A DNA stretch of 64,000 nucleotides, taken from positions 122,577 to 186,576 of the forward strand of contig CAVQVL010000012.1 in NCBI GenBank assembly GCA_963717105.1, in the 5' to 3' direction. The position numbers and the translations under genes were made by a program. Within the stretch, counting starts at the first letter, position 1, and each line of letters opens with the position of its first letter. Shown here piece after piece: positions 7,872 through 53,445 of the stretch. Source of the stretch: an uncultured Chloroflexia bacterium (GTDB lineage Bacteria > Chloroflexota > Ktedonobacteria > Ktedonobacterales > Ktedonobacteraceae). The notes beneath the pieces were generated by a model, which saw only the letters and a list, made by a program, of their open reading frames with translations, ran no database searches and had not been told where the DNA came from.

Positions 7872-9356
7872 GTGAAGGTTTCGGTCGAAAAGCTGCCAAC
7901 CAGTGAAGCGGTCTTAAATGTAGATTTGACCTGGGACGACCTGGAAAAGGCATCAGATAAAGCATATCGAAAATTAGTAAAGCAAGTTGATATACAGGGC
8001 TTTCGTCGTGGCAAGGCCCCACGCTCTTTGCTTGAGCGCAAAATTGGCAAAGAATCTATCTATCAGGAAGGTCTTGATGAACTGATCAATGAGACCTACC
8101 GCAATGCCTTGAAAGAACATGAATTAACCCCCATTCGGCAGCCAGAGGTTGATGCGCCCGTTCTGGAGATCGGGCAGCCGTACCACTTTAGCCTCAAAGT
8201 CCCAATCCTCTCTCCCGTCGTCCTGGGCGATTACCACTCACTTCATATTGACCGTGAAGAAGTCGCTGTCACCTCAGAAGAGGTTGAAAGCGAGATAGAA
8301 TCGCTGCGTAACCGGCAAGTCACCTGGCATGAAGTTGAACGCCCCGCCGAATATGGCGACCGCGTCACCGTTGATCTCAAACTCACGGTTGAAGAAGAGA
8401 ACATCTCCGACCTGAAAGACAATCCCTTTGAGCTGACACAGGAACGACATGGCCTGTTCGTTGGCATGGATGAGCAGGTGGTAGGAATGCAGCCCGGCGA
8501 GAGCAAAGATTTCACCACCACTATTCCCGCCGACTACTCAAATGAGAAAATAGCGGGCAAAGAGGCACACTACCATGTGACCCTCTATAAAATAGAGGCC
8601 AAGGAAACTCCTGAACTCGATGATGCCTTCGCGGCTAAGGTCAGCGAAAGCCAATTCGAGACAATGGAAGACTTGCGCAAAGCCATCAGCGACAATATTC
8701 TGGAGAACAAGCAGCGACATGTACGCGATGAGCTGCGTGAGCAGGTAGTCAACGCCGTCATCGAACAGGCCGAGGTCACACTGCACCCGGTGCTGGTTGA
8801 CGAAGAGGCGGAAGAGATGGTACACCAACTGTCACACAACTTGGAACGACAACGCATGTCGCTGGATCAGTACTTCATGCTCACGAAAAAGACACGCGAA
8901 GAATATCTGCAAGATATCCGCCCCGCTGCGGAAGCGCGTGTGAAGAGCCAGCTTGTACTGGACGAGGTAGCGCGAGAAGAGAAAATCAGCGTCGCGCCCG
9001 AAGAGTTAGAGGCACTTTATCGTGCATATGCCCAGGCCGGACAGCAGTTGGCTCGCTCGGAGGAACAAATCCGTTCGCTGTTATTCAGCTACCGGCGTGA
9101 AAAGACAATTACATTTCTGGTAGATGCGATTGCTGGCCCCGATCCCGATCAAATCAACGAGGAAGAGCAAAGCATTGAGAACGCGGAGGCCGCCGCTATC
9201 GCAGGTGAGCCCGACGTGATAGCCGAAGTTGAGGATGCCGGTGAGGCAACCGAGACACCTGAGGCAACTGGGGCAAGCGAAGTGACTGATACCAGTGTTG
9301 ACGAACAGGTTGACACGCCTGAAGCAACTGGCAACGTAGAGATGGGGGCGCAGTAA
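7872..9356 (+). CDS. tig: Trigger factor with an acidic C-terminal extension
   Basis: GTG start. N-terminus [55 protein letters not shown] is typical of Tig. The tail has PEATG repeats. Confidence 0.9.
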
Positions 9357-9451
9357 CCTGCGTCCTAATGAGGGACTACCAAGCCAGCCCGGTAACGCGC
9401 TTTCGCGCTAGCTACGCTCAACCGGGCTGTAATGAGGAAAAGGTAACCAAC

Positions 9452-10732
9452 GTGGCAAACTCAAAAAACACCCGCACGACCTATCGTTGCTCGTTTTGTG
9501 GCAAGAGTCAGGATCAGGTGCAGCGATTGATCGCCGGGCCTGGGGGCGTCTACATCTGCGATGAATGTATTGACCTCTGCCGGGAAATCATCGAAGAGGA
9601 GCAGGCGACGACGGCAAAACCCCGTCTCCAGACCGGCAAAATGCCCACGCCAAAGAAAATCTACGAGCAACTCAGCCAGTACGTCATTGGGCAGGAGCGT
9701 GCCAAGAAAACGTTGGCGGTGGCAGTCTACAACCATTACAAGCGTATCGGTGTCAACATGCAGATCGACGATGTGGAACTGGCCAAGAGCAATATCCTAA
9801 TGATTGGCCCCACCGGCTGCGGAAAAACATTGCTGGCACAAACGCTGGCAAAGGTGTTGGATGTCCCATTCTGTATCGCCGATGCTACTGCACTGACCGA
9901 AGCGGGCTATGTCGGTGAGGATGTGGAGAATATTTTGCTACGCTTGATCCAGACCGCCGATTTCGATGTGGCACGCGCTGAGCGCGGCATCGTCTATATC
10001 GACGAAATAGATAAGATCGCACGTAAATCCGACAATCCGTCTATCACTCGCGATGTATCGGGTGAAGGAGTGCAACAGGCACTGCTCAAAATCATTGAGG
10101 GAACCATCGCCAATGTCCCTCCACAGGGAGGACGCAAGCACCCGCATCAGGACTTCATTCAGATCAACACGGCCAACATCCTGTTTATCTGCGGCGGTGC
10201 GTTCGAAGGGCTGGACAAAATTGTCGAGCAACGCCTCGGCAGCAACAAGAGCTTTGGCTTTAGAGGCACTACGCCACAAGCGATCGCCGAGAAGAAAGAG
10301 ACCATTCTGACACATATGGTGCCAGATGATTTGCTCAAATACGGCCTCATTCCTGAGTTTGTTGGTCGTTTGCCCGTCGCCGTTTCACTTGACAGCCTGG
10401 ATAAAGAGGCACTGATACGCATCTTGACAGAGCCAAAGAATGCGATTATCAAGCAATACCAGAAATTTATGCAGCTTGATCGAGTCGAGCTAGTCTTCAC
10501 CAATGATGCCCTTGATGCAGCAGCCGAAGGCGCACTCAAACAGCGCACCGGTGCTCGCGGCCTGCGTAGCATCATTGAGGATGTGCTACTCGATGTTATG
10601 TATGAAATTCCGTCGCGAGCAGATGTCAAGAAGGTGATTATCAACGGAGATGTCATCACCTCACACAATAAACCTTTGCTTGTCACCCGCAGCGACCGTT
10701 CAATAGCCTATCCTGAAAATGAGTCTGCATAA
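9452..10732 (+). CDS. clpX: ATP-dependent Clp protease ATP-binding subunit ClpX
   Basis: Zn-finger CSFCGKSQ...CDECIDLC, Walker [18 protein letters not shown]. Start placed at GTG 9452, behind GAGGAAAAGG; the ORF-track start at 9368 is probably too far upstream. Confidence 0.9.
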
Positions 10733-10790: not shown

Positions 10791-13440
10791 ATGAGTATAA
10801 ATGAACGCCAGGAAGTATCGCCGGAACTTAGCGAAACTTATCCACTTGTGGCGTTAAAAAGTATGGTGGTGTTTCCGCGCACACGTACCACGCTCGCAGT
10901 TGCACGAGAGAAATCAGTGCGAGCGATTGAAGAGGGCATGATGCGCCCCGACCGCTTACTCATCGCCGTATCCCAGCGCACCCCCGAACTGGAAGACCCG
11001 GAGCCAGGTGATCTTTATCCTATTGGCGCGCTCGTCGAAATTACCACCGTCCACCGCCAACACGACGGCAGCTTACAGGTCTTACTGAGCGGCTTACAAC
11101 GAGTGGAAATTGAGGAGTTCCAGGACCTGGAACCGTTTATGCATGTCCGCGTGCGCATTCCAGCGGAGCCGCAAGGACGTGGACCACAGGTTGATGCACT
11201 GGTTCGCCACGCCACTAACTTGTTCGAACACTATGCACAACTCAACCGCCGCTACTCGGTCGAGGATATCACCTCCATCGTCGCTATTAAAAATGCTGCC
11301 CGCCTCTCGGATATGCTGGCCGCCCATCTCGTTACCGATGTACAGCAGCAGCAAAACTTGCTGGAGACGTTCGACCCTCTGGAACGTCTGGAAAAAATTT
11401 GCGTCATTATGGGCAACGAAATTGAGATTCTCGAACTCGAATCATCTATTCGCAACCGCGTACGTTCGCAGGTAGACCGTTCACAGAAAGAATTTTACTT
11501 GCGCGAACAATTGCGTGCCATCCAGGAAGAATTAGGGCTGGACACATCCTCAGAGGCAGATGAGCTGCGCGCAAAACTGAATGAGAAAACGCTACCAGTC
11601 GCAGTTTCGACAAAAATACGCAAAGAGATTGACCGCCTGGAAAACACACCGGCACAATCAGCGGAGATAGCCGTGTTGCGTTCATACATCGATTGGGTGC
11701 TGGCTCTTCCGTGGACAGAACGCACCGAGGACCGTTTTGATATTGAACTTACACGCCGCATCCTGGATGAAGACCACTACGGGCTGGAAAATATTAAGGA
11801 GCGCATTATAGACTTTCTGGCGGTGCGCCAGTTACGCCGACAGTTAGCCAATCGAGGTGGACGCAATAGCAGTGAGAGTCAGGGACAGAATTCTCTGCTT
11901 CATTGGCCCTCCTGGTGTTGGTAAAACCTCACTGGGCCGCTCGATTGCGCACGCACTGGGAAGGAAATTCGCCCGTATTTCGCTGGGCGGCGTCCACGAC
12001 GAAGCCGAGATTCGTGGACATCGCCGTACCTACGTCGGTGCCTTGCCCGGACGTATCATTCAATCTATGAAAACTGTTGGCGTGCGTAATCCCGTCTTCT
12101 TGCTTGATGAGATTGACAAACTCTCGGCGGAGTATCACGGCGACCCGGCGGCAGCCCTGCTTGAGGTGCTTGACCCAGAGCAGAATAATAGCTTTACCGA
12201 TCACTATCTGGAAATCCCTTATGACCTATCCGAGGTCTTTTTTATCTGTACGGGCAACGTGAAGTATCAGATACCGCGTGCCCTGGCGGATCGCATGGAT
12301 ATCATTGACCTGCAGGGCTACATGTTTGAAGAAAAAGTCAACATTGGCTTGCGCCATCTCCTGCCAAAAGTGCTGAACGAACATGGCTTGACCGCCGACC
12401 AGTTGAAAATTTCGCAAACCGTCATGCAACACATTGTCAGCGATTACACGAGAGAGGCCGGCGTGCGCAACCTGGAACGCCAACTGGCGACAATTTGCCG
12501 CAAAGCGGCGCGACGCATCATCGAAAAGCCGAAAACGCACCTGCGGCTCACTACACACAGCCTGGAACACTATCTCGGTGCGCCACGTTACAGCACCACT
12601 CCAATCACGCACAATACACAGGTCGGCGTAGCCATGGGATTGGCAGTCACCGAGAACGGCGGTATTCTGCTACCGGTCGAGGTAGCAACGATGCCTGGCA
12701 AAGGCGACTTGCTGGTCACAGGCCAACTGGGCGATATCATGCGTGAGTCAGCGATTGCCGGCCTATCCTATATCCGTTCGCGCACCGACGAACTAGGCAT
12801 TGATATCAATTTCCAGGATGCGACCGACCTGCATATCCACCTGCCGGAGAACGCCATTCCAAAGGATGGCCCATCCGCCGGCATCACCATCACCACCGCC
12901 CTCATTTCGGCACTCACCTATCGCCCCATCCGCGACAACCTCGCTATGACCGGCGAGATTACGTTGCGCGGGCGCGTGCTGGGCATCGGCGGCCTCAAGG
13001 AAAAAGTGCTTGCGGCCCATCAGGCCAACATTTATAACCTGATTGTCCCATTGGAAAATCAGAAGGATATTGCCGAGATTCCGCTAAAAATTAGCAAGAG
13101 CATGCATTTTACCTTCGTAGACACGATGGATCAGGTCGTGCAAGCTGCTTTGCTCGACGCTCCACCAGAAAGTCAAACAGAAAATCAAATGCCTGCAGAC
13201 GAACAAAGACAGCTTGAGCTACCTGAGCCACGTCCATTGCATGTGGACGAGCGGCTCCCACTTACTCGTGACCTACCTGGACGCCGCACAGGCATAGCGG
13301 GAATGAATACTGATGACCAGCTCGACAATGATGTGACCGAACGCAACGAACGCGAACCGGGAACATTCCACATTATTCCTGACGAGCATAATACACACGA
13401 TTCCTATCCCCCTATGCGAGCGCAAGACCCTGAACACTAA
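10791..13440 (+). CDS. lon: Lon protease, reading frame interrupted once (shift between 11848 and ~11885)
   Basis: The Lon N-domain ORF (10791-11924) is followed in another frame by ILCFIGPPGVGKTSLGRSIA (Walker A) and the protease domain PKDGPSAGITITTAL. The second frame is closed by TAG at 11845-11847, so a shift is required. Confidence 0.85.
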
Positions 13441-35614: not shown

Positions 35615-35691
35615 CGGGGTGTAGCGCAGTCGGCTAGCGCGCAGCGTTCGGGACGCTGAGGTCGGAGGTTCAAGTCCTCTCACCCCGACCA
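35615..35691 (+). tRNA. tRNA-Pro (anticodon CGG), CCA encoded
   Basis: Acceptor CGGGGTG/CACCCCG. Anticodon stem CAGCG/CGCTG with loop TTCGGGA. T-loop GGAGGTTCAAGTCCTCT. 3' ACCA. Confidence 0.9.
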
Positions 35692-36078
35692 GGATGGCAC
35701 ACTACTTCCTTGAAGAAGTGTCATACAAACAGTCTCAGGTATACAATACAGCACAAGGAGTTCCAAGATGCGAACGTATCAGCTACAGACAACAACTGCT
35801 CTGGCGGATTGTTGTTCTCTGATACCTGTTGGCAAAAGTCTCCGTACCGTCCTTCAAGGGCGTACAGGGCAGGCCGCGGGTGCTGAACGATACGCAGTGC
35901 CGCATTCGCCTGGACGTGCAAGACGCTTTTGTCCTTATCTACCTGGTCGTCGTCGTGGACGGCAGTAGAAGCGAAAGAGGGTAGGAATTTCCCTGTCCCT
36001 CACCTACCTCAACACGCTTCTTCCTCGCTGTCTGCTCTCGTTATCGGCTCTGACAGAGAGGAAAGGGAAGCCATTCAT

Positions 36079-36630
36079 ATGCCTGTTCTTGTATTAAATT
36101 CCTCATTACAACCTCTCTCGGTCATTCCTGAGCGTCGTCTCATCGTGTTACTGTCGAAGCAGAAAGTCACTTTTATTGATGAGAATGTTCGTAGTTTGAT
36201 CGAGGAGAGCATTCAAGCACGCCGTCTTGAGTTAGAGCGACCCGTCATTGTACAGCTTTTAGCCAATGTACGGGTGCCACGGGTTGCGCTCCAGCCAACG
36301 CGGGCCAATATCCTGTTGCGTGACGATGAGACGTGCCAGTATTGCGGAAAAAGAGGCCGCGATCTGACGCTTGATCATATCATTCCGCGTTCTCGTGGCG
36401 GCTTAAGCACATGGGAAAATCTGGTTGCCTCGTGCAAATATTGCAACGGTAAAAAAGGGAATCGCCTCCTGAAAGAGGTCAATATGCACCTGTTGCGCCA
36501 GCCGCGCCCGCTATCGCAGGAATACGCGGGCTTCTTCCTGTTGCGCTACCCCCGCTTGCGCGAAGCTTACGAGGAATTCTTGATGAGTGCCCAGTATGGC
36601 AAACCCGCCTATCATGGGCTGAGTGCGTAA
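36079..36630 (+). CDS. HNH endonuclease
   Basis: CQYCGKRGRDLTLDHIIPRSRGGLSTWENLVASCKYCNGKKGN. Start at ATG 36079, behind GAGAGGAAAGGGA. Confidence 0.85.
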   Translation: MPVLVLNSSLQPLSVIPERRLIVLLSKQKVTFIDENVRSLIEESIQARRLELERPVIVQLLANVRVPRVALQPTRANILLRDDETCQYCGKRGRDLTLDHIIPRSRGGLSTWENLVASCKYCNGKKGNRLLKEVNMHLLRQPRPLSQEYAGFFLLRYPRLREAYEEFLMSAQYGKPAYHGLSA

Positions 36631-40032: not shown

Positions 40033-40294
40033 AAGCCATACCCTGTCCCTTTTTCGATGCTTAACAATGCCTACACTTAATTATACCGCCTGAGTAAAAA
40101 CATATCTTATCACAAATGTATCACAATTACCGGCATTTCACGAAATTTTTACGAGGAATATACGCTATCTCCCAAAATGTTGTGATACACTAAGAGATAG
40201 AGAAGGGAAATGTGCTCCTCCCCATGTTGGACAAAAATGAGGGCCTTGAGATTCATCGTTGCAACGATGCAAGGCACGGCTTGGAGGGTATCGT

Positions 40295-42744
40295 ATGCCC
40301 ATTACATTTGATCGCAGCCTCTGCTGTGACCTGAATGAGACCAGTAAGCGTGAGTGGCTCATCACCAACGGCGCAGGTGGCTACGCGGCAGGGACGGTCG
40401 CAGGTCTGCTGACCCGAATGGAACACGGTCTACTCGTATCATCGCCACTCGATACGACAACCCCACAACTATTGGTGGCAAAAATGGATGAAGAGGTTGT
40501 GTTTGACCGGCGTACCTATTATCTTGGCACCAACGAGTACCGCGATGGAACACTAAATCCGAGTGGCTTTGTTCATCTTGAAACATTTCGTCTTGAAGAG
40601 GGCTTTCCCATATTTACCTATCGCCTCGGCGGCATTGATGGCATCATCCTGGAAAAACGCATCTGGATGCCGCAAGGCCAGAACACGACTTGCATTCAGT
40701 ATCGCGTTCTGCGTACCGCGACCGCCTACGAAACTGCCTATAGTAATGCCGACTGGCACCCCCAGCATCCCCAGCCTCCCAATGCCAACTATGCCCACAT
40801 CAATAAAGGCAGCGGGTTTAGACGCCATTATGAATACTCAGAGGCGGCTCAACGAGAATTGACCCTAAAGTTGTTGCCATTCTCCGCGTATCGTGCCTAT
40901 AATCAGCCACAATCTGGCAACAACGATTGGCATTTACAGGTACAACAACTTTCCACTGAACAGAAGCCAGCCTCTTTACCAGAAGGCGTCGCCGGTTGCA
41001 CGATTCATGCATATGAGGGAGCGCATCCCTACCATATTTTGGCGATAGGTCATCCTGAGACCCAGGCAAGCTTCATCCCCACGAACGTCTGGTACTGGCA
41101 TTTCCTGCGGCAACACGACTCAGCGGCAGGACGCCCCGCCACTGATGACCTGTATCTTCCTGGCGTTCTCCGGGCCAGACTGTGGGCAGACGAGGATTGC
41201 GTCCTGACAATCATTGTCACGGCAGAAGACCTATCAGAACAAACATTTAGTCTGAATCAATTAAACCTCTCATATACACGAGCCGTCGAAAGCCAGCATC
41301 GTCTCCTACAACCACAACGCTATTTTGGTGAAGGCGGCGAAACAGCCCACGCCTTGTCCATTCTTCCTTTGCCTATTGCTCCCGACTCGCATCCAGGCGG
41401 CGAGGAGTACCTGCGGCTGTTGCTTCAGGCAGCAAATCGCTTGATCATTCAGTGTCCTATTAAGCGGAACGAAAATGGGAACATATCGGCGCTGCTCTTC
41501 ACAGGGCCCGAAAAAGTGCCTGTCATCCTCGCGGATTACTACGGTATGCAGGCCTCGACACGCGACACGCTCATGGCACTCCCCGGACTGCTTCTGGCCA
41601 CTGGTCGCCATAGTGAAGCCGGGCGCATCCTGCATTGGCTCGCTCGCTTCTTCAAGCAGGGCCTTTTGCCCGACTACTTACCATTGGCCGGGCAAACAGC
41701 AGAAACGAACGATTATAGCAATGTAGATAATACGCTCTGGTACCTCTACGCGCTCGACGCCTATGTGCGCACCACTCGTGACTACGAGCTATTGGGCGAA
41801 CTTTACCCACGGATCGCCGCCAGCATTGACCGATACCTTCAGGGTACCGAGAACGGCATCCAGTGCGATCCCGAAGATGGACTGTTGCAGGCAAACGCAC
41901 CTGGCAAAGCACTTACATGGATGAATGCCACCGCCCAAAACAACCAGGACAACCAGGGCAACCGAGACAACCAGTGACACCGCGTAGCGGGAAACCTGTC
42001 GAAGTCAACGCGCTCTGGTACTATGCCCTCTCGCTGATGCAGGAGTGGTCGCAATCGCAATACCACAACGGCCGTAGTGACCACCCCCCTTCCTATTATG
42101 AGGAACGCAGCGAACGCTGCCGCCAGAGCTTCCAACATAAGTTCTGGAACGCTGAGAACGGCTACCTTTATGACGTTGTGGATGGACCAGAAGGCAACGA
42201 TGCCGCGTTAAGGCCCAACCAATTGCTGGCCCTTTCCCTACGTTACCCGGTATTAGCAATAGAGTACAGGCTACCGGTCTTCAAGCAAGTAACCGAACAT
42301 CTATTGACCCCCTATGGCTTACGCACACTTGCCCCAGGAGAAACCGTCTATCGTGGACATCTACCTGAGCAATGGGAAGAGCAGCAGCAAGCATTACATC
42401 AGGGAAGTGTATGGCCCTGGCTACTCGGCTCCTATATTGAGACCATGCTCAGTATGCAAAGCGTAGATTTTGAAGTACCATCTATGCGAGGAATAGATAG
42501 CAATCTTCCACAAGAGTACCTGTGGCGCAAGAGTATTCTGCTGTTGGAGCCATTTAGAAAGCAGCTAGAAACGGGAATGCTCGGCACCATTGGCAGCGTT
42601 TTCTCCGGCAACGAACCTCACAATCCTGGTTACAATGTTGCTTCCGCGCTCAGCATTGGAGAAATTCTGCGCATGTACCACCGCCTCACGCAACAACGGC
42701 ACCAACCATCTGTTGCCTTGACGCCAGTAAAGAGTCTGCGATAA
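40295..42744 (+). CDS. Glycogen debranching enzyme (amylo-alpha-1,6-glucosidase, GDE_N/GDE_C type), frame broken near 41965-41977
   Basis: WLITNGAGGYAAGTVAGLLTRMEHGLLV at the N-terminus, then ...TWMNA followed in the second frame by VTPRSGKPVEVNALWYYAL. Start ATG 40295 behind GGAGGG. Confidence 0.8.
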
Positions 42745-42788: not shown

Positions 42789-43830
42789 TTATCCACATTT
42801 TCTGTGGATAACTCGCTATTTTCAAGCTGATTCCCATGCAAAGAGTTATCCACAATGACCGTGGATAACTTATCCACATTTCCACGTGTGCAAAAGTAAT
42901 ATACCGGTTATCCACAGTCGTTGTGGATAACTTATCCACATTTTTTCTAACCAGTGGATAAGTTTTGAAGTTGTGCACAATTACTGTGGATAACTTATCC
43001 ACATTGTCCACATACAGACATCAGCAGGGATACTTATCCACAGTTGCTGTGGATAACTTATCCACACTTTTCCCAATTGGTGGATAACTTTTAAGTTATG
43101 CACATGTAGTGTGGATAAGTTATCCACATTGTCCACATACGGCTGTCAGCAGGGATAAGTTATCCACAGTTGCTGTGGATAACTTATCCACACTTCTCCC
43201 GATTGGTGGATAACTTTTGTGGTTATTTACATTCCTTCAAAGGACAGCAAATACAAATGTAGTGGTTTTAACCATAGCGTTATCACGCAAAAGAACGCAA
43301 AAAGTGGATAAATTACCTCAAAATGTGGACAACTCAGGCAAATTGTGTAAAAGTCCTTGCATCCCTCTCATATCTCTCCTCCGAGCCTGATGCTTGTTTC
43401 CCCTCTTAAACATATTCACATTTGTAGTGGATAACTTATCCACAATTTCATGAACAGGTGGATAACGTCGAAACTTATCCACATTCATTGTGAATAACTT
43501 ATCCACATTTTTCTCAACTGGTGGATAAGCTACGAGATTATCCACACAGCCTGTGGACAACTTATCCACAGGCTAACAAGAGAGAGAAAAGTTATCCACC
43601 AGGGCGGTCAAGTTATCCACAGCTTGTTCACTTCATTCACATACAGTGGATAAGTTATCCACAACGCCTACACCGGCCTCCAGAGCCATTTTATATAATT
43701 CAGTCAAGAATGAGAACCTTCAAAAAAAGCAAGTTATCCACTTATCCACAGCCCCTACTACTGCTGTTATATATTAAGTAATTAAAATAATATATTACGT
43801 AGTACGTAGGGGCTGTGGATAAGTGGATAA
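42789..43830. promoter_or_regulatory. Dense DnaA-box array: candidate chromosomal replication origin (oriC) or DnaA-titrating locus
   Basis: My manual count gives 19 TTATCCACA and 7 TGTGGATAA perfect 9-mers plus 19 single-mismatch variants. Ten head-to-head pairs are spaced by 1 nt. A 125-bp tandem duplication spans 42985-43109 / 43110-43233. Confidence 0.75.
43767..43797. other. AT-rich candidate DNA-unwinding element bracketed by a 17-bp inverted repeat (43742-43758 / 43806-43822)
   Basis: TTATATATTAAGTAATTAAAATAATATATTA has one G in 31 nt. The flanking TTATCCACAGCCCCTAC and GTAGGGGCTGTGGATAA are exact reverse complements. Confidence 0.5.
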
Positions 43831-44031
43831 CTTTGGGTATGGAACAAAATAGGATTTGTGTCTTACCTTCTCCCTTTTTCGTTCTAACAGATAGTACAAT
43901 TGGGGTAGCAAAAATCCTTTTTATTACGTTTGTATACGTGAGCGCGACTTTCAGGGAGATAGCTCGTTATATCGAATGTAGGACGAAGACGCTAATCTAT
44001 CATATCTACTCGTTTTAATAAAGGATACTGG

Positions 44032-46116
44032 GTGATGTCTACTATAGAGACAGTCAAAGCAAAAGTAGATGTGGTTGATGAGATTGGGCTGGTCGTCGCG
44101 CTCTCGAAATCGGGTAAGGCATTTAAGGGCCTGTGTCCATTTCACAACGAGCGCACACCCTCGTTTTATGTCTTTGCCGACTCGCAATCCTGGCACTGTT
44201 TTGGTTGTAACGAGGGCGGCGATGTTTTCACATTTGTGCAGAAGCAGCAGAATTTAGAATTTCGCGATGCGTTACTTTATCTCGCTGAGAAAGCCGGTGT
44301 CCCGGTAGAAGAGTACGCGGGCGGAAACCCGGAGGAAGAGCGGGAAACGCAGGCCATCAAAGAGCGTATGCGCAAAATGAACGAAGACGCGCAGTTGTGG
44401 TTTCACCAGATGTTGTTACGCTCGAAGGAGGCCGCGGGGGCCAGAGAGTATATAAAGAGTCGCGGGATTGCACCTGATACGGTGGTGGCATTTGGTCTTG
44501 GTTACGCTCCCCAGGGCCAAAGTTGGGATGGATTAACTCGTTACCTGCAGAGTCAGGGCTATACGGAGCGCGAATTGATAAATGGTGGCTTAGCACGAGA
44601 ACGCGAAGAGGGGAAAGGTGGTGGGGTCTATGATTACTTTCGGCAACGTCTTATCTTTCCTATTCGGGATACGCGCAGTCGAGTGATTGGTTTTGGCGGG
44701 CGGGAGTTAGGGGGCGGGCAACCAAAGTACTTGAATTCGCCGCAGACGTTACTGTTTGAAAAAAATAGCGTCTTATATGCATTGGATATGGCAAGGGACG
44801 CCATAAAACAGGCAAAGCAAGTGGTGATCGTCGAAGGGTATGTAGACGCGGTTATCGCGCATCAATATGGCACGACACAAACGGTAGCTTGCATTGGCAG
44901 TGCCATCACGGAAAAGCACATTCAACAATTAAAAAAGTTGACGAAGCAGGTAACGCTCGCGCTTGATCCTGACGCGGCTGGTGCCAGCGCAACTGAGCAT
45001 GGTATTCAGGAAGCGTTGAAAACGTTTGACCGCACCATCGTACCTGTCCCATTGGCGGGAACGCCCGGTGGATACGGTGGCCACAGTGGACGCAGACGCA
45101 ACGAGCCACGCGGTATTATTCGGCTGGAAGAGCAAGTAGATGCGGAAATCAATGTCCTGCAACTACCAGTGGGCGAGGACCCGGACGAGGTGATCCGCCG
45201 CGATTTTGCCTTCTGGGCCAACGCGGTAGCCCATCCTCTGCCCTTGATAGACTACTACTTCGCGACAAAGACGGCTGGCTTGAATTTACGTGAACCCGCG
45301 GGCCAGACAGAGGCGGCGAAGCGACTGTTACCTGTGATCGGGATGATTTCTGACCGTATCAAGCGTGACGCCTACATACGGAAGCTCGCATCAATGATCA
45401 GCATTGACGAGCGCAGTTTATACGATGAATTGCAGCGCAGCTTGCGAGGGCAGAAATCTACCGGTGTCGTGGCAGCATTCTCCGCATCAAATACTTCGGG
45501 GAAACGCACAACGAAGGGAAACGGCGAGGCCCAGGAAAAACCCGAATGGGCCGAGAATCTGTTGAGGCCGGGGGAACCGAAGAAACTGAGCCAGTTGAGG
45601 CGGGACACCTGCAAGAAAAGCGGAGTAGCAGAGGACTTGACAAAAGGAAGGTAGATAAGTTACAATGGGAGGACTACCTGATCGGGCTACTCTTGCACAA
45701 TCCTGGGTTAAGTACGCATGTTTGTGGTATAATAACTGATGGTGACTTTGCTGGGACTGACACGCGAGAGTTGTACCGCATTCTCAACTCTATGAACCAA
45801 CGTGGCTTTTCCTCCTCAAATCAACCCGTCGAACAAGTAGTGCCTTTTGCGTTGGCGGCAGCCGTCGCGAGGGCGCAAAAGTGTGCTGAGTCGAGTGCTT
45901 CAAAAGATGAAGTTGGACTGGTTCGGGACGCAGTCCAGTGTGCTACCCGACTCAAGCGAACGACGATTGATACAATTGAATATCGAGTTACAGTATCTCA
46001 TGCGCGAAGCAGAGACAACTGGTGACGTAACGTCAGAGCGGCAATTGCGCTTGCAACTGTTTGCGAACCAGCAACAGTTGCGAACAATTGACTCAGCAAC
46101 GCATTTGCAGGGGTAA
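44032..46116 (+). CDS. dnaG: DNA primase DnaG, frame broken near 45560-45650 and near 45955-45965
   Basis: Zn-finger CPFHNERTPSFYVFADSQSWHCFGCNEGGDVFTF, TOPRIM (VVIVEGYVDAV). The C-terminal helicase-binding region continues in two other frames (45546-46025, 45847-46116). Confidence 0.85.
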
Positions 46117-46295
46117 GCAGAAAAGCCTGTCTTTGTCGGTGCGGGCTGGTAGAGAGGGTGGTAGGGATGGTGGGGTAGCCGGAGTGGCAGAAAATAGACA
46201 TCATCTTACCAAATTGGATACCAGGAAACGGGATGTATTATCATTCCATTATTCGTTTTATCATCTAGACCTGTTTTCTGAAGGGGGATGCCAGA

Positions 46296-47560
46296 ATGGT
46301 GAATAGGGAACAAGACGTGATTGATCTGGTACGCGATGAGCGAATAAGTACAGAGCCATTAAGTGAGTGTTCAGATGTAGAACCGTTTGATGAGTCCATG
46401 TTGAGTAATACGGAAAACATTTTTAATATTGACAGTATAGGTCATGTTGCTCATGCGACGCCGAGTGGTAGCCTTGTGGCACCTACTGACGAGCATGAGT
46501 CATATGATCTGTTCGCGAAGCTGCAGGACGAAGAGCCTATGGATGCCCTGGATCCAACCAAAGAGCCGCCCGCAGATTGGGAGCCAGGACCAGAAGACGA
46601 GGTAGATGCATGGTCATGGCGAACAGCAAATGGGAAGATCTGCAAGATGGTTTTGGTATTGTAGTTGCCGATCTTGAGAGTAGCCTGGATGATCCAGTGC
46701 GGATGTACCTGCGCGAGATCGGACGTGTCCCTCTGCTTTCGGCAGAGGAAGAGGTTCGGCTGGCGCAACGCATGGAGCGCGGCAAGGCTGAGCGACTCAA
46801 ACCAGCACCCAAAACCGCCGCTACATTGACGATGGTGAGGAGGCCCAGCGCCGTCTCACCGAGGCCAACCTGCGCCTTGTTGTCAGCGTGGCGAAGAAGT
46901 ACATCGGGCGTGGTATGAGCCTGCTGGACCTGATCCAGGAAGGCAATATCGGCCTGATTCGTGCCGTTGAGAAGTTCGACTATAACTAAGGGCTACAAGT
47001 TCAGCACGTATGCGACGTGGTGGATTCGTCAGGCCATCACTCGTGCCATCGCCGATCAGGCGCGTACCATTCGTATCCCCGTGCACATGGTGGAGACGAT
47101 CAACCGCCTGATTCGCATCAGCCGCCGTCTGCTGCAAGACCTGGGGCGTGAACCCACGTCCGAGGAGATCGCGGAGCAGATGGAGATTACCGCGGAGAAG
47201 GTGCGCGAAATCATCAAGGTCAGCCAGGAGCCGGTCAGCCTCGAGACGCCAATCGGTGAGGAAGAGGATAGCCATCTCGGTGATTTCATCGAAGACCACA
47301 CCGCCCTGGCACCAGCCGAGGCCGCCAGCCATCAACTGCTCAAAGAGCAGGTTGAGGATGTGCTGGACAGCCTGACCGAGCGCGAGCGCAAGGTATTGCA
47401 ACTGCGCTTCGGTCTTGACGATGGTCGCAGCCGCACGCTCGAAGAGGTTGGCAAGGAGTTCCACGTCACTCGCGAGCGCATTCGCCAGATCGAGGCGAAA
47501 GCTCTGCGCAAATTGCGCCATCCAAGCCGCAGCCGCAAGCTGAAAGATTACCTCGATTAG
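46296..47560 (+). CDS. rpoD: Principal sigma-70 factor RpoD/SigA, at least two (probably three) frame disruptions; conserved core from 46610
   Basis: Region 1.2 [22 protein letters not shown] (frame of 46610). Region 2 [41 protein letters not shown] is only readable in another frame between ~46795 and 46986. [34 protein letters not shown] is back in the first frame. An acidic ORF at 46296-46664 may be region 1.1. Confidence 0.85.
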
Positions 47561-50332: not shown

Positions 50333-51127
50333 CTACTGTTCAATAACTTCAATGGTTTTACGGACAATTTCGATGAAATCGTGCTTAAGACTGGCACCGC
50401 CGACGAGCGCACCGTCTATGTCGGGGTGCGCCATGAAATCCGCGATGTTGGACGAGGTGACGCTGCCGCCATAGAGAATGCGTAGAGCGGATGCCGCTTC
50501 CCTACCGTACATGTCGCCATAGAGTTCACGTATCTGGTGAATGACCTTCCCTGCTCCTTCAGCGGTGGCGGCTTTGCCGGTGCCAATGGCCCAGATGGGT
50601 TCATAGGCGATGACAACTTCGTTGACATGCTGTGATGGAAGGTTTACGAGACTGGCATGAACTTGATGGCGGATCACCTGCTCGGTTTCGTCCGCGTCGT
50701 GTTGCACCTCATTTTCGCCAATGCAGACGATGGGGCGCAGGTGGTGATGCAGGGCAGCCAGCGTTTTGCGGTTTACCAGTTCATCGTTTTCGCCGAAGAT
50801 CGTGCGACGCTCGGAGTGACCTAGAATGACGGTATTGCATAACTCCCCAACCATTGTTGGTGAAAGCTCGCCGGTGAAGGCACCGTTATCCTCAAAATAC
50901 ATATTCTGTGCGCCCAGGTCTACGCGCGACTGTGGTTGGGCATCCAACACCTGCCGGACAGCTGGTAAAGAGATGGCTGGTGGGCAGAGTATGCACTGGA
51001 TATGTTCGTGCTGCGACACGAGTTGCTCCAGTTCTGGCACAATTTCTTGCGCAAAGACTTTTGCCAGGTTGGGGCCGTAGTTCATTTTCCAGTTGCCCGC
51101 GATGATCGCGGAACGAATATTTGCCAT
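50333..51127 (-). CDS. tpiA: Triosephosphate isomerase
   Basis: AGNWKMN, ILGHSERR, YEPIWAIGTG. Confidence 0.92.
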   Translation of the reverse strand: MANIRSAIIAGNWKMNYGPNLAKVFAQEIVPELEQLVSQHEHIQCILCPPAISLPAVRQVLDAQPQSRVDLGAQNMYFEDNGAFTGELSPTMVGELCNTVILGHSERRTIFGENDELVNRKTLAALHHHLRPIVCIGENEVQHDADETEQVIRHQVHASLVNLPSQHVNEVVIAYEPIWAIGTGKAATAEGAGKVIHQIRELYGDMYGREAASALRILYGGSVTSSNIADFMAHPDIDGALVGGASLKHDFIEIVRKTIEVIEQ

Positions 51128-51137
51128 GCTGCCACCT

Positions 51138-52334
51138 TTACCCTTTATCTTGCAATGCTGCCACCCCTGGCAGAATACGTCCTTCGAGGAACTCTAGCGA
51201 GGCACCACCGCCGGTGGAGACATGGGTCATCTTGTCCGCCGCGCCAGCCTGTTCAACTGCCGCCGCCGAGTCTCCGCCACCGATGATAGTGGTGGCACCC
51301 TTTTTTGTGCGTTCAGCCAGTATCTCGATGATGGCGTCGGTACCCTTTGCGAAATTTGGCATTTCCGCGACACCAAGTGTGCCATTCCAGATAATGGTTT
51401 GTGCCTTTTGCAAAGCAGCGCGGAAAGTGGCGATAGTCGCGGGGCCAATATCAAGAATGCGCCATTCAGGTAACACTTGATCAGACGGAACAATGCGCGT
51501 ACTGGCGTCGTTGGCGAAACGGTCGGCCAGTACAACGTCGGTGGGCAATAAAAACTGGATACCGCGCTGCCGGGCTTTGCCAATCAACTCACGAGCAACA
51601 TCAACTTTGCCCTCTTCATAGAGCGAATTGCCAATCTCGTAGCCTTCGGCCTTGAGGAAGGTGTTCGCCATACCGCCGCCAATGAGCAGAGTATCAACCA
51701 TTGAAATCAGGCGTTCCAGTACCATTATTTTGTCGGAGACCTTCGCGCCGCCAATGATGGCTACGAAGGGTCGCCGGGGATGCTCCAGTGCCGATCCCAG
51801 GAAATTAATTTCCTTTTCCATCAAGAAGCCCGCCACAGCTGGCAAATAGTGTGCAACGCCCTCGGTTGAGGCATGCGCCCGGTGGGCCGAGCCGAAGGCG
51901 TCGTTTACATAGATATCGCCGAGCGCGGCAAGCTGTTGAGCATACGCCGGGTCATTTTTCTCCTCTTCCTTATGGAAGCGCAGATTTTCCAGTAGCAGCA
52001 CCTGTCCTGGCTGGAGAGCTTTTGCTTGTGCCTCCACCACCGGGCCGACCGACTCGTCCGCTGTTTGCACGGGCTTGCCTAGTAGTTCGCTTAGCCGTCG
52101 AGCGACAGGTGCCATGCGCATAGACTCGACAACCGCTCCTTTTGGTCGACCCAGGTGGGACATGAGAATGACCGCCGCGCCTGCATCGAGCAGATAGGTG
52201 ATAGTAGGCAGTGAAGCTCGAATGCGCGTATCATCGGTAATGCGTTGCTCTGCGTCAAGCGGCACATTAAAGTCTACGCGCACAAGCACACGTTTTCCCG
52301 CGATAGTGCTATCGCGGACGGTTTGCTTATTCAT
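51138..52334 (-). CDS. pgk: Phosphoglycerate kinase
   Basis: [44 protein letters not shown]. Confidence 0.92.
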
Positions 52335-52350
52335 AAACGTCCACTCCAGG

Positions 52351-53445
<1,095 letters not shown>

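Follow-up and report, generated by a model that had tools for sequence, protein, structure and literature searches.

Replication origins that are unlinked from dnaA, and unwinding elements of the kind called a basal unwinding system (BUS), are both known already. Origins away from dnaA include the E. coli origin between gidA and mioC and the dnaN-linked origins of cyanobacteria, while the Streptomyces origin (oriC) lies between dnaA and dnaN, close to the centre of a linear chromosome. The datA site of E. coli and the DnaA-box clusters of B. subtilis are poor in boxes and are not known to contain a DnaA-trio/AT-rich unwinding element. The unwinding region of the B. subtilis oriC (incC), which has been characterised experimentally, is a BUS composed of DnaA-boxes 6 and 7, a GC cluster, DnaA-trios and an AT-rich 27-mer. 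Published search criteria for such a system (PMC8287927) comprise a DnaA box with at most two mismatches beside the trios, usually joined by a second tandem box (at most four mismatches, at most 3 bp apart); a spacer of 0-16 bp (with a peak at 10-13) from the better-conserved box to the first trio, including a GC-rich cluster of about 4 bp; and at least three trios of the pattern (NAN)n, with the consensus 3'-GAT-5'. The S. coelicolor oriC has, according to PMC5448010, 19 boxes over about 1 kb in two clusters. Here we describe an exceptionally dense array of DnaA boxes, with an unwinding module at its edge, that lies upstream of the primase gene dnaG in a 64,000-nucleotide stretch (the window) of contig CAVQVL010000012.1, from an uncultured Ktedonobacteraceae bacterium (Chloroflexota), and we argue that array and module together are highly likely to be the chromosomal oriC of a Ktedonobacterium.

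We took TTATCCACA (TGTGGATAA on the opposite strand) as the DnaA box and counted 9-mers that were perfect or had one mismatch. An oriC is expected to hold a cluster of such boxes well above chance, and 26 of the 27 perfect 9-mers in the window fall inside 42789-43830, against a chance level per 64 kb of 0.46 on average and 4 at most (dinucleotide-preserving shuffles). The figure of 26 is the same as in a preliminary description of this DNA, which had in addition claimed 19 boxes with a single mismatch; our recount gives 18, and hence a total of 44 boxes (at most one mismatch) in 1,042 bp, or about one every 24 bp. We propose that this interval comprises a DnaA oligomerisation region plus an unwinding element.

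Two box clusters with a box-poor spacer between them make up the array (Table 1). The distal one is a tandem repeat that TRF resolves into 2.5-3 copies of a 126-bp period with 83-86% identity over 42844-43226, so that the 125-bp tandem duplication described previously is real but its size was understated; the five 19-bp head-to-head palindromes cited there as examples (at 42922, 42985, 43048, 43110 and 43174) are all present. Every 63-bp sub-unit of this cluster holds the triplet TTATCCACA-N5-TGTGGATAA-N1-TTATCCACA. The same grammar prevails over 68 arrays, in which the commonest arrangements of neighbouring boxes are TGTGGATAA-N1-TTATCCACA (10-bp offset, 430 times) and TTATCCACA-N5-TGTGGATAA (14-bp offset, 412 times), which combine into a three-box unit. 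Box-to-box distances in these arrays show a sharp peak at 10.5 bp, recurring at 63 and 126 bp, and the boxes are therefore helically phased. The spacer carries a further conserved element, formed by three co-oriented boxes of decreasing match (aGTGGATAA, TGTGGACAA and TGTGtAaAA) at spacings of 21 and 20 bp; blastn matches to this element were found in 18 loci, and their alignment (A2) shows invariant columns.

The edge of the array that faces dnaG has a different organisation. The almost pure A/T stretch of 31 nt at 43767-43797, to which the preliminary description had drawn attention, indeed has 30 of 31 positions A or T, and a perfect inverted repeat does surround it; the length of that repeat is 28 nt, not 17, with arms at 43731-43758 and 43806-43833 and 47 nt (81% A+T) between them. 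We searched for related modules with an nhmmer profile of the dnaG-proximal end of the array, in a comparison set of 80 loci of DnaG relatives (+/-10 kb each); the pattern TTATCCRCWTWTCCACNNNNCCTAYTAC would serve for the same purpose. The profile revealed one module of about 105 bp in 70 of the 80 loci, always at an edge of the array. Its consensus reads G TTATCCAC WTWTCCACA, nnCCC and TAC TAC TAC, followed by about 40 bp of AT-rich sequence, and, to the right of the AT-rich stretch, TAGT-AnnTAG, GGGC and TGTGGAWAW GTGGATAAC; on the minus strand the left half is thus an AT-rich region, TAG TAG TAG, GGGC and two tandem boxes. An adjacent AT-rich duplex unwinding element, another expected feature of an oriC, is therefore present as judged by sequence, and the position of the core is conserved in the 70 loci.

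The left half of the module has what the published search criteria ask of a BUS, and by them it is a predicted BUS. Its tandem boxes are TTATCCACT and TTATCCACA (43734-43750), the distal box being invariant in 60 genomes and the proximal box less conserved; the spacer measures 12 nt in the window, a length shared by 48 of the 50 genomes that have three or more trios; and at least three trios occur on this side in 94% of 53 genomes, versus 24% of shuffled cores. On the right-hand side the trios are irregular: they reach this number in only 53% of genomes, and the right arm in the window has only two in frame. A symmetric "double BUS" was accordingly rejected as a general rule, and in our description the module consists of a single canonical BUS and, opposite it, a mirrored pair of boxes. 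Set beside the B. subtilis dnaA-dnaN spacer, in which TTATCCACAAATCCACAGGCCCTACTATTAC precedes an AT-rich run, the window has TTATCCACTTATCCACAGCCCCTACTACTGC before its own AT-rich run, and a comparison of the longer segments (CTTATCCACAAATCCACAGGCCCTACTATTACTTCTACTATTTTTTATAAATATATATATT in B. subtilis, GTTATCCACTTATCCACAGCCCCTACTACTGCTGTTATATATTAAG in the window) shows the same layout, including the 8-bp offset of the boxes.

The two arms of the module change in concert. Among 60 genomes the proximal-box pairs TTAT/ATAA, ATTT/AAAT, TTTT/AAAA, ATAT/ATAT and TTGT/ACAA are found, and the flanking base and one GC-cluster position covary too (columns 5/119 and 23/100 of alignment A1). Changes on both sides were counted in 69 cells, compared with 40 +/- 4.5 in shuffles (none of 500 shuffles reached 69), and the covariation score of the arms is 0.124, compared with at most 0.055 for slid controls. 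As single-stranded DNA the window module is computed to fold into a single hairpin of -38.9 kcal/mol (z = -13.4), and in about half of the 60 genomes the AT-rich core is significantly palindromic by itself. Mirrored boxes are not unique to Ktedonobacteria, since 12 of 53 dnaA-linked origins on metagenome contigs also have degenerate boxes of this kind past the unwinding element. Three low-GC metagenome contigs (L087, L094 and L100) carry mirrored degenerate tandem boxes, ATGTGCATAACTGTGTATAAC, in their dnaA-dnaN spacers, past the AT-rich region and immediately ahead of the dnaN ribosome-binding site; unwinding elements with box pairs on both sides may perhaps be commoner than usually drawn.

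Array and module are conserved throughout the class. The DnaG relatives retrieved belong exclusively to the class Ktedonobacteria (53-79% identity, with one truncated match at 89%) and include Ktedonobacter, Ktedonosporobacter, Dictyobacter, Tengunoibacter, Ktedonospora and Thermogemmatispora. Where the upstream flank is long enough, nearly all of the 80 loci have a dense array 0.25-2 kb upstream of dnaG; in all, arrays of 0.9-1.6 kb with 16-68 boxes are seen in about 70 Ktedonobacteria loci (among them Ktedonobacter, Dictyobacter, Ktedonosporobacter, Tengunoibacter and Thermogemmatispora), the richest having 55 perfect boxes (Ktedonobacter sp. SOSP1-85) and 51 (K. racemifer). The glycogen debranching enzyme gene and dnaG-rpoD, given as neighbours in the preliminary description, do flank the array in the window, and this order is kept across the class, the left neighbour differing in some lineages. 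The earlier statement that the window contains neither dnaA nor dnaN also holds: tblastn with B. subtilis DnaA (a query 100% identical to the database protein) and DnaN gave no match in the window, which extends 43 kb leftwards from the array and 20 kb beyond it on the right, nor within +/-10 kb in the 80 relatives. Adjacency to dnaA/dnaN, a common but not a defining trait of oriC, is thus absent from the window and from all 80 loci.

Exceptions to the usual arrangement are informative. In two metagenome-assembled genomes (L009, at 8128-9504, and L012) the array, 1.4 kb long, lies as a whole in the opposite orientation between the debranching enzyme gene and dnaG, which places the unwinding module on the side away from dnaG, and in L001 insertions interrupt the array and part it from dnaG, the module lying 3 kb upstream of that gene. 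A metagenome contig with a G+C content of 0.60 (L170, 10172-10753) has an array in the Ktedonobacteria style, built on the 63-bp box unit seen here, downstream of the debranching enzyme gene, with a beta-CASP/RMMBL ribonuclease gene in place of dnaG as right neighbour, and in another (L101) the array stands beside genes for a GNAT protein and a trypsin-like peptidase; neighbours on either side can therefore change. Because it can be inverted, separated from dnaG or flanked by other genes, the array is better regarded as a self-contained cassette than as a promoter element of dnaG.

A scan of metagenomes with the left-half signature returned 120 contigs. In 53 of these the signature lies just downstream of dnaA, in canonical origins of many phyla (G+C 26-70%), and in 27 it lies upstream of a Ktedonobacteria-like dnaG; the signature of canonical origins therefore sits beside dnaG in this class. 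The scan found no module outside the dnaG context that was attributable to a secondary replicon. The median number of boxes per 1.5 kb is 8.5 in the dnaA-linked origins (for the 44 of 53 with at least 1.2 kb of upstream sequence; maximum 19) and 33 in the Ktedonobacteria-type contigs; the array in the window has about four times as many boxes as typical origins. Two further metagenome contigs with a G+C content of about 0.42 (L134, 2432-2990, and L163, 866-1330) have a dense origin with 18 perfect boxes upstream of dnaN-recF, the boxes standing in runs of four at 11-12-bp spacing in one orientation and then four in the other; in L134 dnaA is 9.4 kb off, which makes this another box-rich origin detached from dnaA, in a different lineage.

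An oriC is also expected at a switch of strand asymmetry, and such a switch is found here both locally and in aggregate. Skew was sampled within +/-10 kb of the module, in loci that are related and partly syntenic. Averaged over 45-67 loci in 1-kb bins, raw GC skew stays below zero throughout the nine bins left of the module (-0.015 to -0.12) and above zero throughout the twelve on its right (+0.006 to +0.14), with the change of sign at the module. To separate replication from gene-orientation effects, skew at fourfold-degenerate sites was split by side of the module and by gene strand, genes transcribed in the same way as a fork leaving the module being termed co-directional. In the gene sense, it amounts to -0.022 (left of the module, minus strand) and +0.018 (right, plus strand) in co-directional genes, and to -0.144 (left, plus strand) and -0.193 (right, minus strand) in head-on genes. 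The contrast survives the removal of homologues of the conserved neighbours, with a per-locus difference of +0.19 that is positive in 89% of 44 loci (nominal Wilcoxon p 7.5e-10, for loci that are phylogenetically non-independent). In the aggregate of about 60 genomes, skew flips at the module independently of gene strand, and because the plus strand is G-rich to the right of the module, the polarity is that of an origin and not of a terminus.

The position of the module on larger contigs is in keeping with an origin. Chromosome-like contigs of Ktedonobacteria are reported to have V-shaped cumulative skew, the major V of which coincides with the origin predicted by Ori-Finder, and for two species, D. 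aurantiacus and D. alpinus, linear chromosome contigs that end in inverted repeats are described (PMC13289182, mSystems 2026). We find the module at 0.433 and 0.425 of these two linear contigs, respectively, and at 0.45-0.54 of four other large contigs whose topology is unclear; a position near the contig centre is what would follow from a central origin on a linear chromosome.

Several observations weigh against an origin at this site. Skew in the window itself is noisy: the cumulative curve has equally deep minima at about 27 kb and at 43 kb, and among the genes that lie left of the array in the window the strand difference to be expected is missing. Genes are usually co-oriented with replication, and the arrangement in the window is the opposite, with genes converging on the array (mostly plus to the left, mostly minus beyond 50 kb); over all loci the orientation bias is weak, and the loci compared share ancestry and, in part, gene order. 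The Ori-Finder coordinates are absent from the text, the preprint and the supplements of PMC13289182, and the published origin is likely to be identical with this locus.

The array might instead be a site of DnaA titration or inactivation, or a DnaA-controlled regulatory region of dnaG-rpoD, the true origin lying elsewhere, for example at dnaA-dnaN. It does lie directly upstream of dnaG-rpoD in most genomes, its very many consensus boxes would titrate much DnaA, and a smaller box cluster in the dnaB promoter region suggests that DnaA regulates replication genes; but a sink or an operator needs no module of tandem boxes, GC cluster, trios and AT-rich sequence that matches a proven unwinding system, nor would it explain why strand composition flips at the module, and in some genomes the cassette is inverted or separated from dnaG. 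That dnaA and dnaN are elsewhere, reported to form one locus with parA/parB in Ktedonobacteria (PMC13289182), agrees with this alternative. The two roles are not exclusive, however, as a box-rich origin titrates DnaA too: an oriC of this kind will necessarily do so, and may influence the transcription of dnaG-rpoD. We regard a titration or regulatory site without an origin as very improbable. The preliminary description had allowed for a datA-like sink in particular; a sink of this type would be expected to have neither an unwinding element nor trios and to promote hydrolysis of DnaA-ATP, and is disfavoured because the conserved DnaA-trio/AT-rich element and the skew switch, neither of which it needs, are both present.

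A further possibility is that the chromosome has two functional origins, of which this is one, or that this origin is auxiliary or was transposed recently, in each case coexisting with a canonical dnaA-dnaN box cluster. The very large, multi-replicon genomes of Ktedonobacteria, and the bipartite and multiple predicted origins that exist in other bacteria (PMC5448010), make this conceivable. Against it, chromosome-like contigs have one major V, coincident with the predicted origin (PMC13289182), the skew switch recurs here consistently throughout the class, and every contig with a Ktedonobacteria-like DnaG in the metagenome scan had the signature at dnaG; that scan showed no dnaA-adjacent module of Ktedonobacteria type, the taxonomy of the dnaA-adjacent matches being undetermined. 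We consider a second origin of this kind very improbable. Frameshifts in several genes of the window and the tandem repeats inside the array could raise the suspicion that the array has no function and is an artefact of repeats, a mobile element or an error of assembly, a reading for which there is next to no probability left: about 70 independent genomes, isolates included, and about 27 metagenome contigs have this architecture at the equivalent position, and such conservation effectively refutes it.

Other identities were considered and set aside. An assembly artefact was rejected on the conservation of the architecture in about 100 independent sequences, and a plasmid or mobile element because no similar DNA was found in PLSDB. 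No Rfam family matched at its gathering score, as would be expected of an RNA gene or riboswitch (sub-threshold hairpin models of microRNA precursors match the palindromes), and the open reading frames of 76-86 amino acids within the array have no Pfam match. Promoter-like sites were no more numerous in a promoter scan than in shuffled sequence.

What we observe is the sequence architecture itself, its conservation across the class, a layout identical to that of B. subtilis and a local switch in strand composition. The proposal of a candidate oriC unlinked to dnaA, made in the preliminary description, is upheld by this conservation, by the BUS module, by the skew flip and by the central position on contigs, and we conclude that the element is very probably the origin of the class, a hyper-dense, helically phased and palindromic variant of oriC. 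By analogy with characterised origins, DnaA would bind the array, the core would unwind and replication would initiate there. The field of high-affinity boxes, about 1 kb long and built from phased 63-bp units in two clusters with a spacer, would be occupied by DnaA, and the tandem box pair at the dnaG-proximal edge would position a filament of DnaA-ATP. This filament would cross the 4-bp GC cluster onto the TAG-type trios of the minus strand and open the AT-rich core of about 47 bp, in the manner of a B. subtilis-type BUS; the mirrored box pair on the far side, which completes an imperfect palindrome of about 100 bp, might act as a clamp on the bubble, or as the nucleus of a second DnaA complex by which helicase is loaded in both directions.

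As for its history, the best-supported reading is that the origin moved from dnaA-dnaN to the intergenic region between the debranching enzyme gene and dnaG and kept its ancestral BUS, and that the field of DnaA boxes grew by tandem duplication of phased units. A more far-reaching hypothesis, which taken as a whole we hold to be doubtful, is that of a structurally distinct origin, with a palindromic element, mirrored arms that evolve in concert and a phased in-cis DnaA reservoir of 40-70 boxes. Under this hypothesis two-sided DnaA assembly or cruciform extrusion could open the core and load two helicases symmetrically; the reservoir could set the timing of initiation in multinucleoid mycelia with very large and sometimes linear chromosomes, a role that would be convergent with Streptomyces; and chromid-like secondary replicons without Rep initiators could share the same DnaA-dependent design.

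Table 1. Positions of the array, the module and adjacent genes in the window, and of predicted modules in other Ktedonobacteria.
Feature	Sequence	Coordinates	Strand	Remarks
Glycogen debranching enzyme gene	window	40259..42744	+	usual left-hand neighbour; two frames in the window
Complete DnaA-box array	window	42789..43830	24 boxes +, 20 boxes -	26 perfect and 18 one-mismatch boxes
Distal box cluster	window	42844..43226		~3 copies of a 126-bp unit, each of two 63-bp sub-units
Conserved central element	window	43297..43354	-	inside the box-poor spacer 43214-43425
Proximal box cluster	window	43408..43570		63-bp tandem unit, 2.2 copies (TRF); boxes extend to 43663
Left tandem DnaA-box pair	window	43734..43750	+	TTATCCACT, TTATCCACA, 8-bp offset; counterpart of B. 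subtilis boxes 6/7
GC cluster, 4 bp	window	43751..43754	-	GGGC on the minus strand; separates the proximal box from the trios
DnaA-trios	window	43755..43769	-	five NAN repeats, TAG TAG CAG CAG TAA; 12 nt from the conserved distal box
AT-rich core	window	43759..43805		47 nt, 81% A+T, between the inverted-repeat arms; proposed duplex unwinding element
Right arm	window	43806..43833	+	mirrors the left arm: GTAG, GGGC, TGTGGATAA (43814-43822), aGTGGATAA (43822-43830)
dnaG (primase)	window	44032..45654	+	conserved right-hand neighbour
rpoD	window	~46296-47560		after dnaG; fragmented by frameshifts
Predicted module	K. rubrisoli CP035758.1	~7,354,856-7,354,963		
Predicted module	strain brp13 AP024096.1	~5,631,838-5,631,947		
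Predicted module	D. aurantiacus NZ_BIFQ01000001.1	~2,653,701-2,653,793		
Predicted module	D. alpinus NZ_BIFT01000001.1	~2,374,116-2,374,207		
Predicted module	K. racemifer NZ_ADVG01000002.1	~2,786,977-2,787,084		

Further features of the window surround this locus. The dnaB gene is on the minus strand, begins at about 1010 and runs off the start of the window; in the divergent intergenic region between it and a gene for a cyclophilin-type peptidyl-prolyl isomerase (1498-2478) there is a small cluster of 7-8 DnaA-box-like motifs (1189-1343; one perfect, five with one mismatch), through which DnaA may control dnaB expression. An element of about 30 nt, agcgcgactttcagggagatagctcgttatat (43941-43972), lies 60-90 nt upstream of the dnaG start, and distant relatives, Dictyobacter and Thermogemmatispora among them, retain it at 83-90% identity; it has no Rfam match and could be a promoter or leader element. 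The tpiA-pgk-gap glycolytic operon (50333-53364, minus strand) is located 6.5 kb to the right of the array, a position conserved in most relatives, and its transcription would run head-on to forks from the proposed origin. Directly downstream of tRNA-Pro(CGG) (35615-35691) is an HNH endonuclease gene (35929-36630), and the region 35615-36630 may be the remnant of a mobile element. Reading frames are broken in the debranching enzyme gene (40259-42744), at the C-terminus of dnaG (44032-46025), in rpoD (46061-47560, at least three pieces) and in Lon (10791-11924), which has 377 amino acids here and 882-892 in cluster relatives. Because the debranching enzyme gene is a single frame in relatives, this suggests indel errors in the source assembly rather than pseudogenes.

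Ktedonobacteria are actinomycete-like Chloroflexota with multi-replicon, partly linear genomes of 5-13 Mb, and the present analysis would pin the origin of this whole, poorly studied class to a precise unwinding site of about 100 bp. A literature search for a described oriC of Ktedonobacteria found nothing specific; an Ori-Finder origin has been plotted for these genomes and left undescribed, and the location on the side of dnaG, the record number of boxes, the phased three-box grammar and the covarying palindromic module all appear to be undescribed in the literature searched. If the reading as oriC is correct, a B. subtilis-type BUS would have persisted almost unchanged after the origin left dnaA-dnaN, and this would possibly be the most box-rich natural oriC described so far (up to 55 perfect and 68 total boxes). 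It would lend itself naturally to testing what box number, helical phasing and box pairs on two sides do to DnaA assembly, titration and bidirectional helicase loading, and its exact coordinates could anchor genome assemblies, skew analyses and the construction of minichromosomes and shuttle vectors in Ktedonobacteria.

Compared with known systems, the locus combines traits that are otherwise found apart. It differs from the E. coli gidA-mioC and cyanobacterial origins in its neighbours, the debranching enzyme gene and dnaG-rpoD, and in its far higher box density. The origins predicted with Ori-Finder 2022 concern the same organisms, in a paper that gives no sequence features, box counts or neighbouring genes (PMC13289182). 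With E. coli datA and the B. subtilis DnaA-box clusters it shares a high-affinity cluster away from dnaA, but unlike such sites it has a DnaA-trio/AT-rich element plus a skew switch.

The Streptomyces origins are closer in overall form. The oriC of S. coelicolor and S. lividans is likewise about 1 kb long and rich in boxes, with two clusters and a spacer (PMC5448010), and the hosts are alike in being mycelial and spore-forming with very large genomes. Two clusters with a spacer are found here as well, and the Dictyobacter module lies near the centre of two linear contigs (0.43), as does the Streptomyces origin on its chromosome; the dnaA-dnaN location is absent. The number of boxes is higher, at 44 here and up to 68 in relatives compared with 19 (PMC5448010), and the boxes here have the perfect E. 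coli-type consensus. As the phyla are unrelated (Chloroflexota and Actinomycetota), the resemblance would be convergent, an analogy rather than membership.

The closest likeness is with the B. subtilis oriC, where two boxes with the same offset are followed by G(G/C)CCC, a CTACTA... run (TAG trios on the opposite strand) and an AT-rich run; the 12-nt spacer from the better-conserved box and the minimum of three NAN trios are shared, and the sequence is nearly identical. Unlike that of B. subtilis, the module described here adjoins dnaG instead of lying between dnaA and dnaN; it is bounded on the far side by a mirrored pair of tandem boxes, which makes it a palindrome of about 100 bp with covarying arms; and it is attached to a continuous array of about 40-70 boxes, in contrast to a bipartite origin with about 8.

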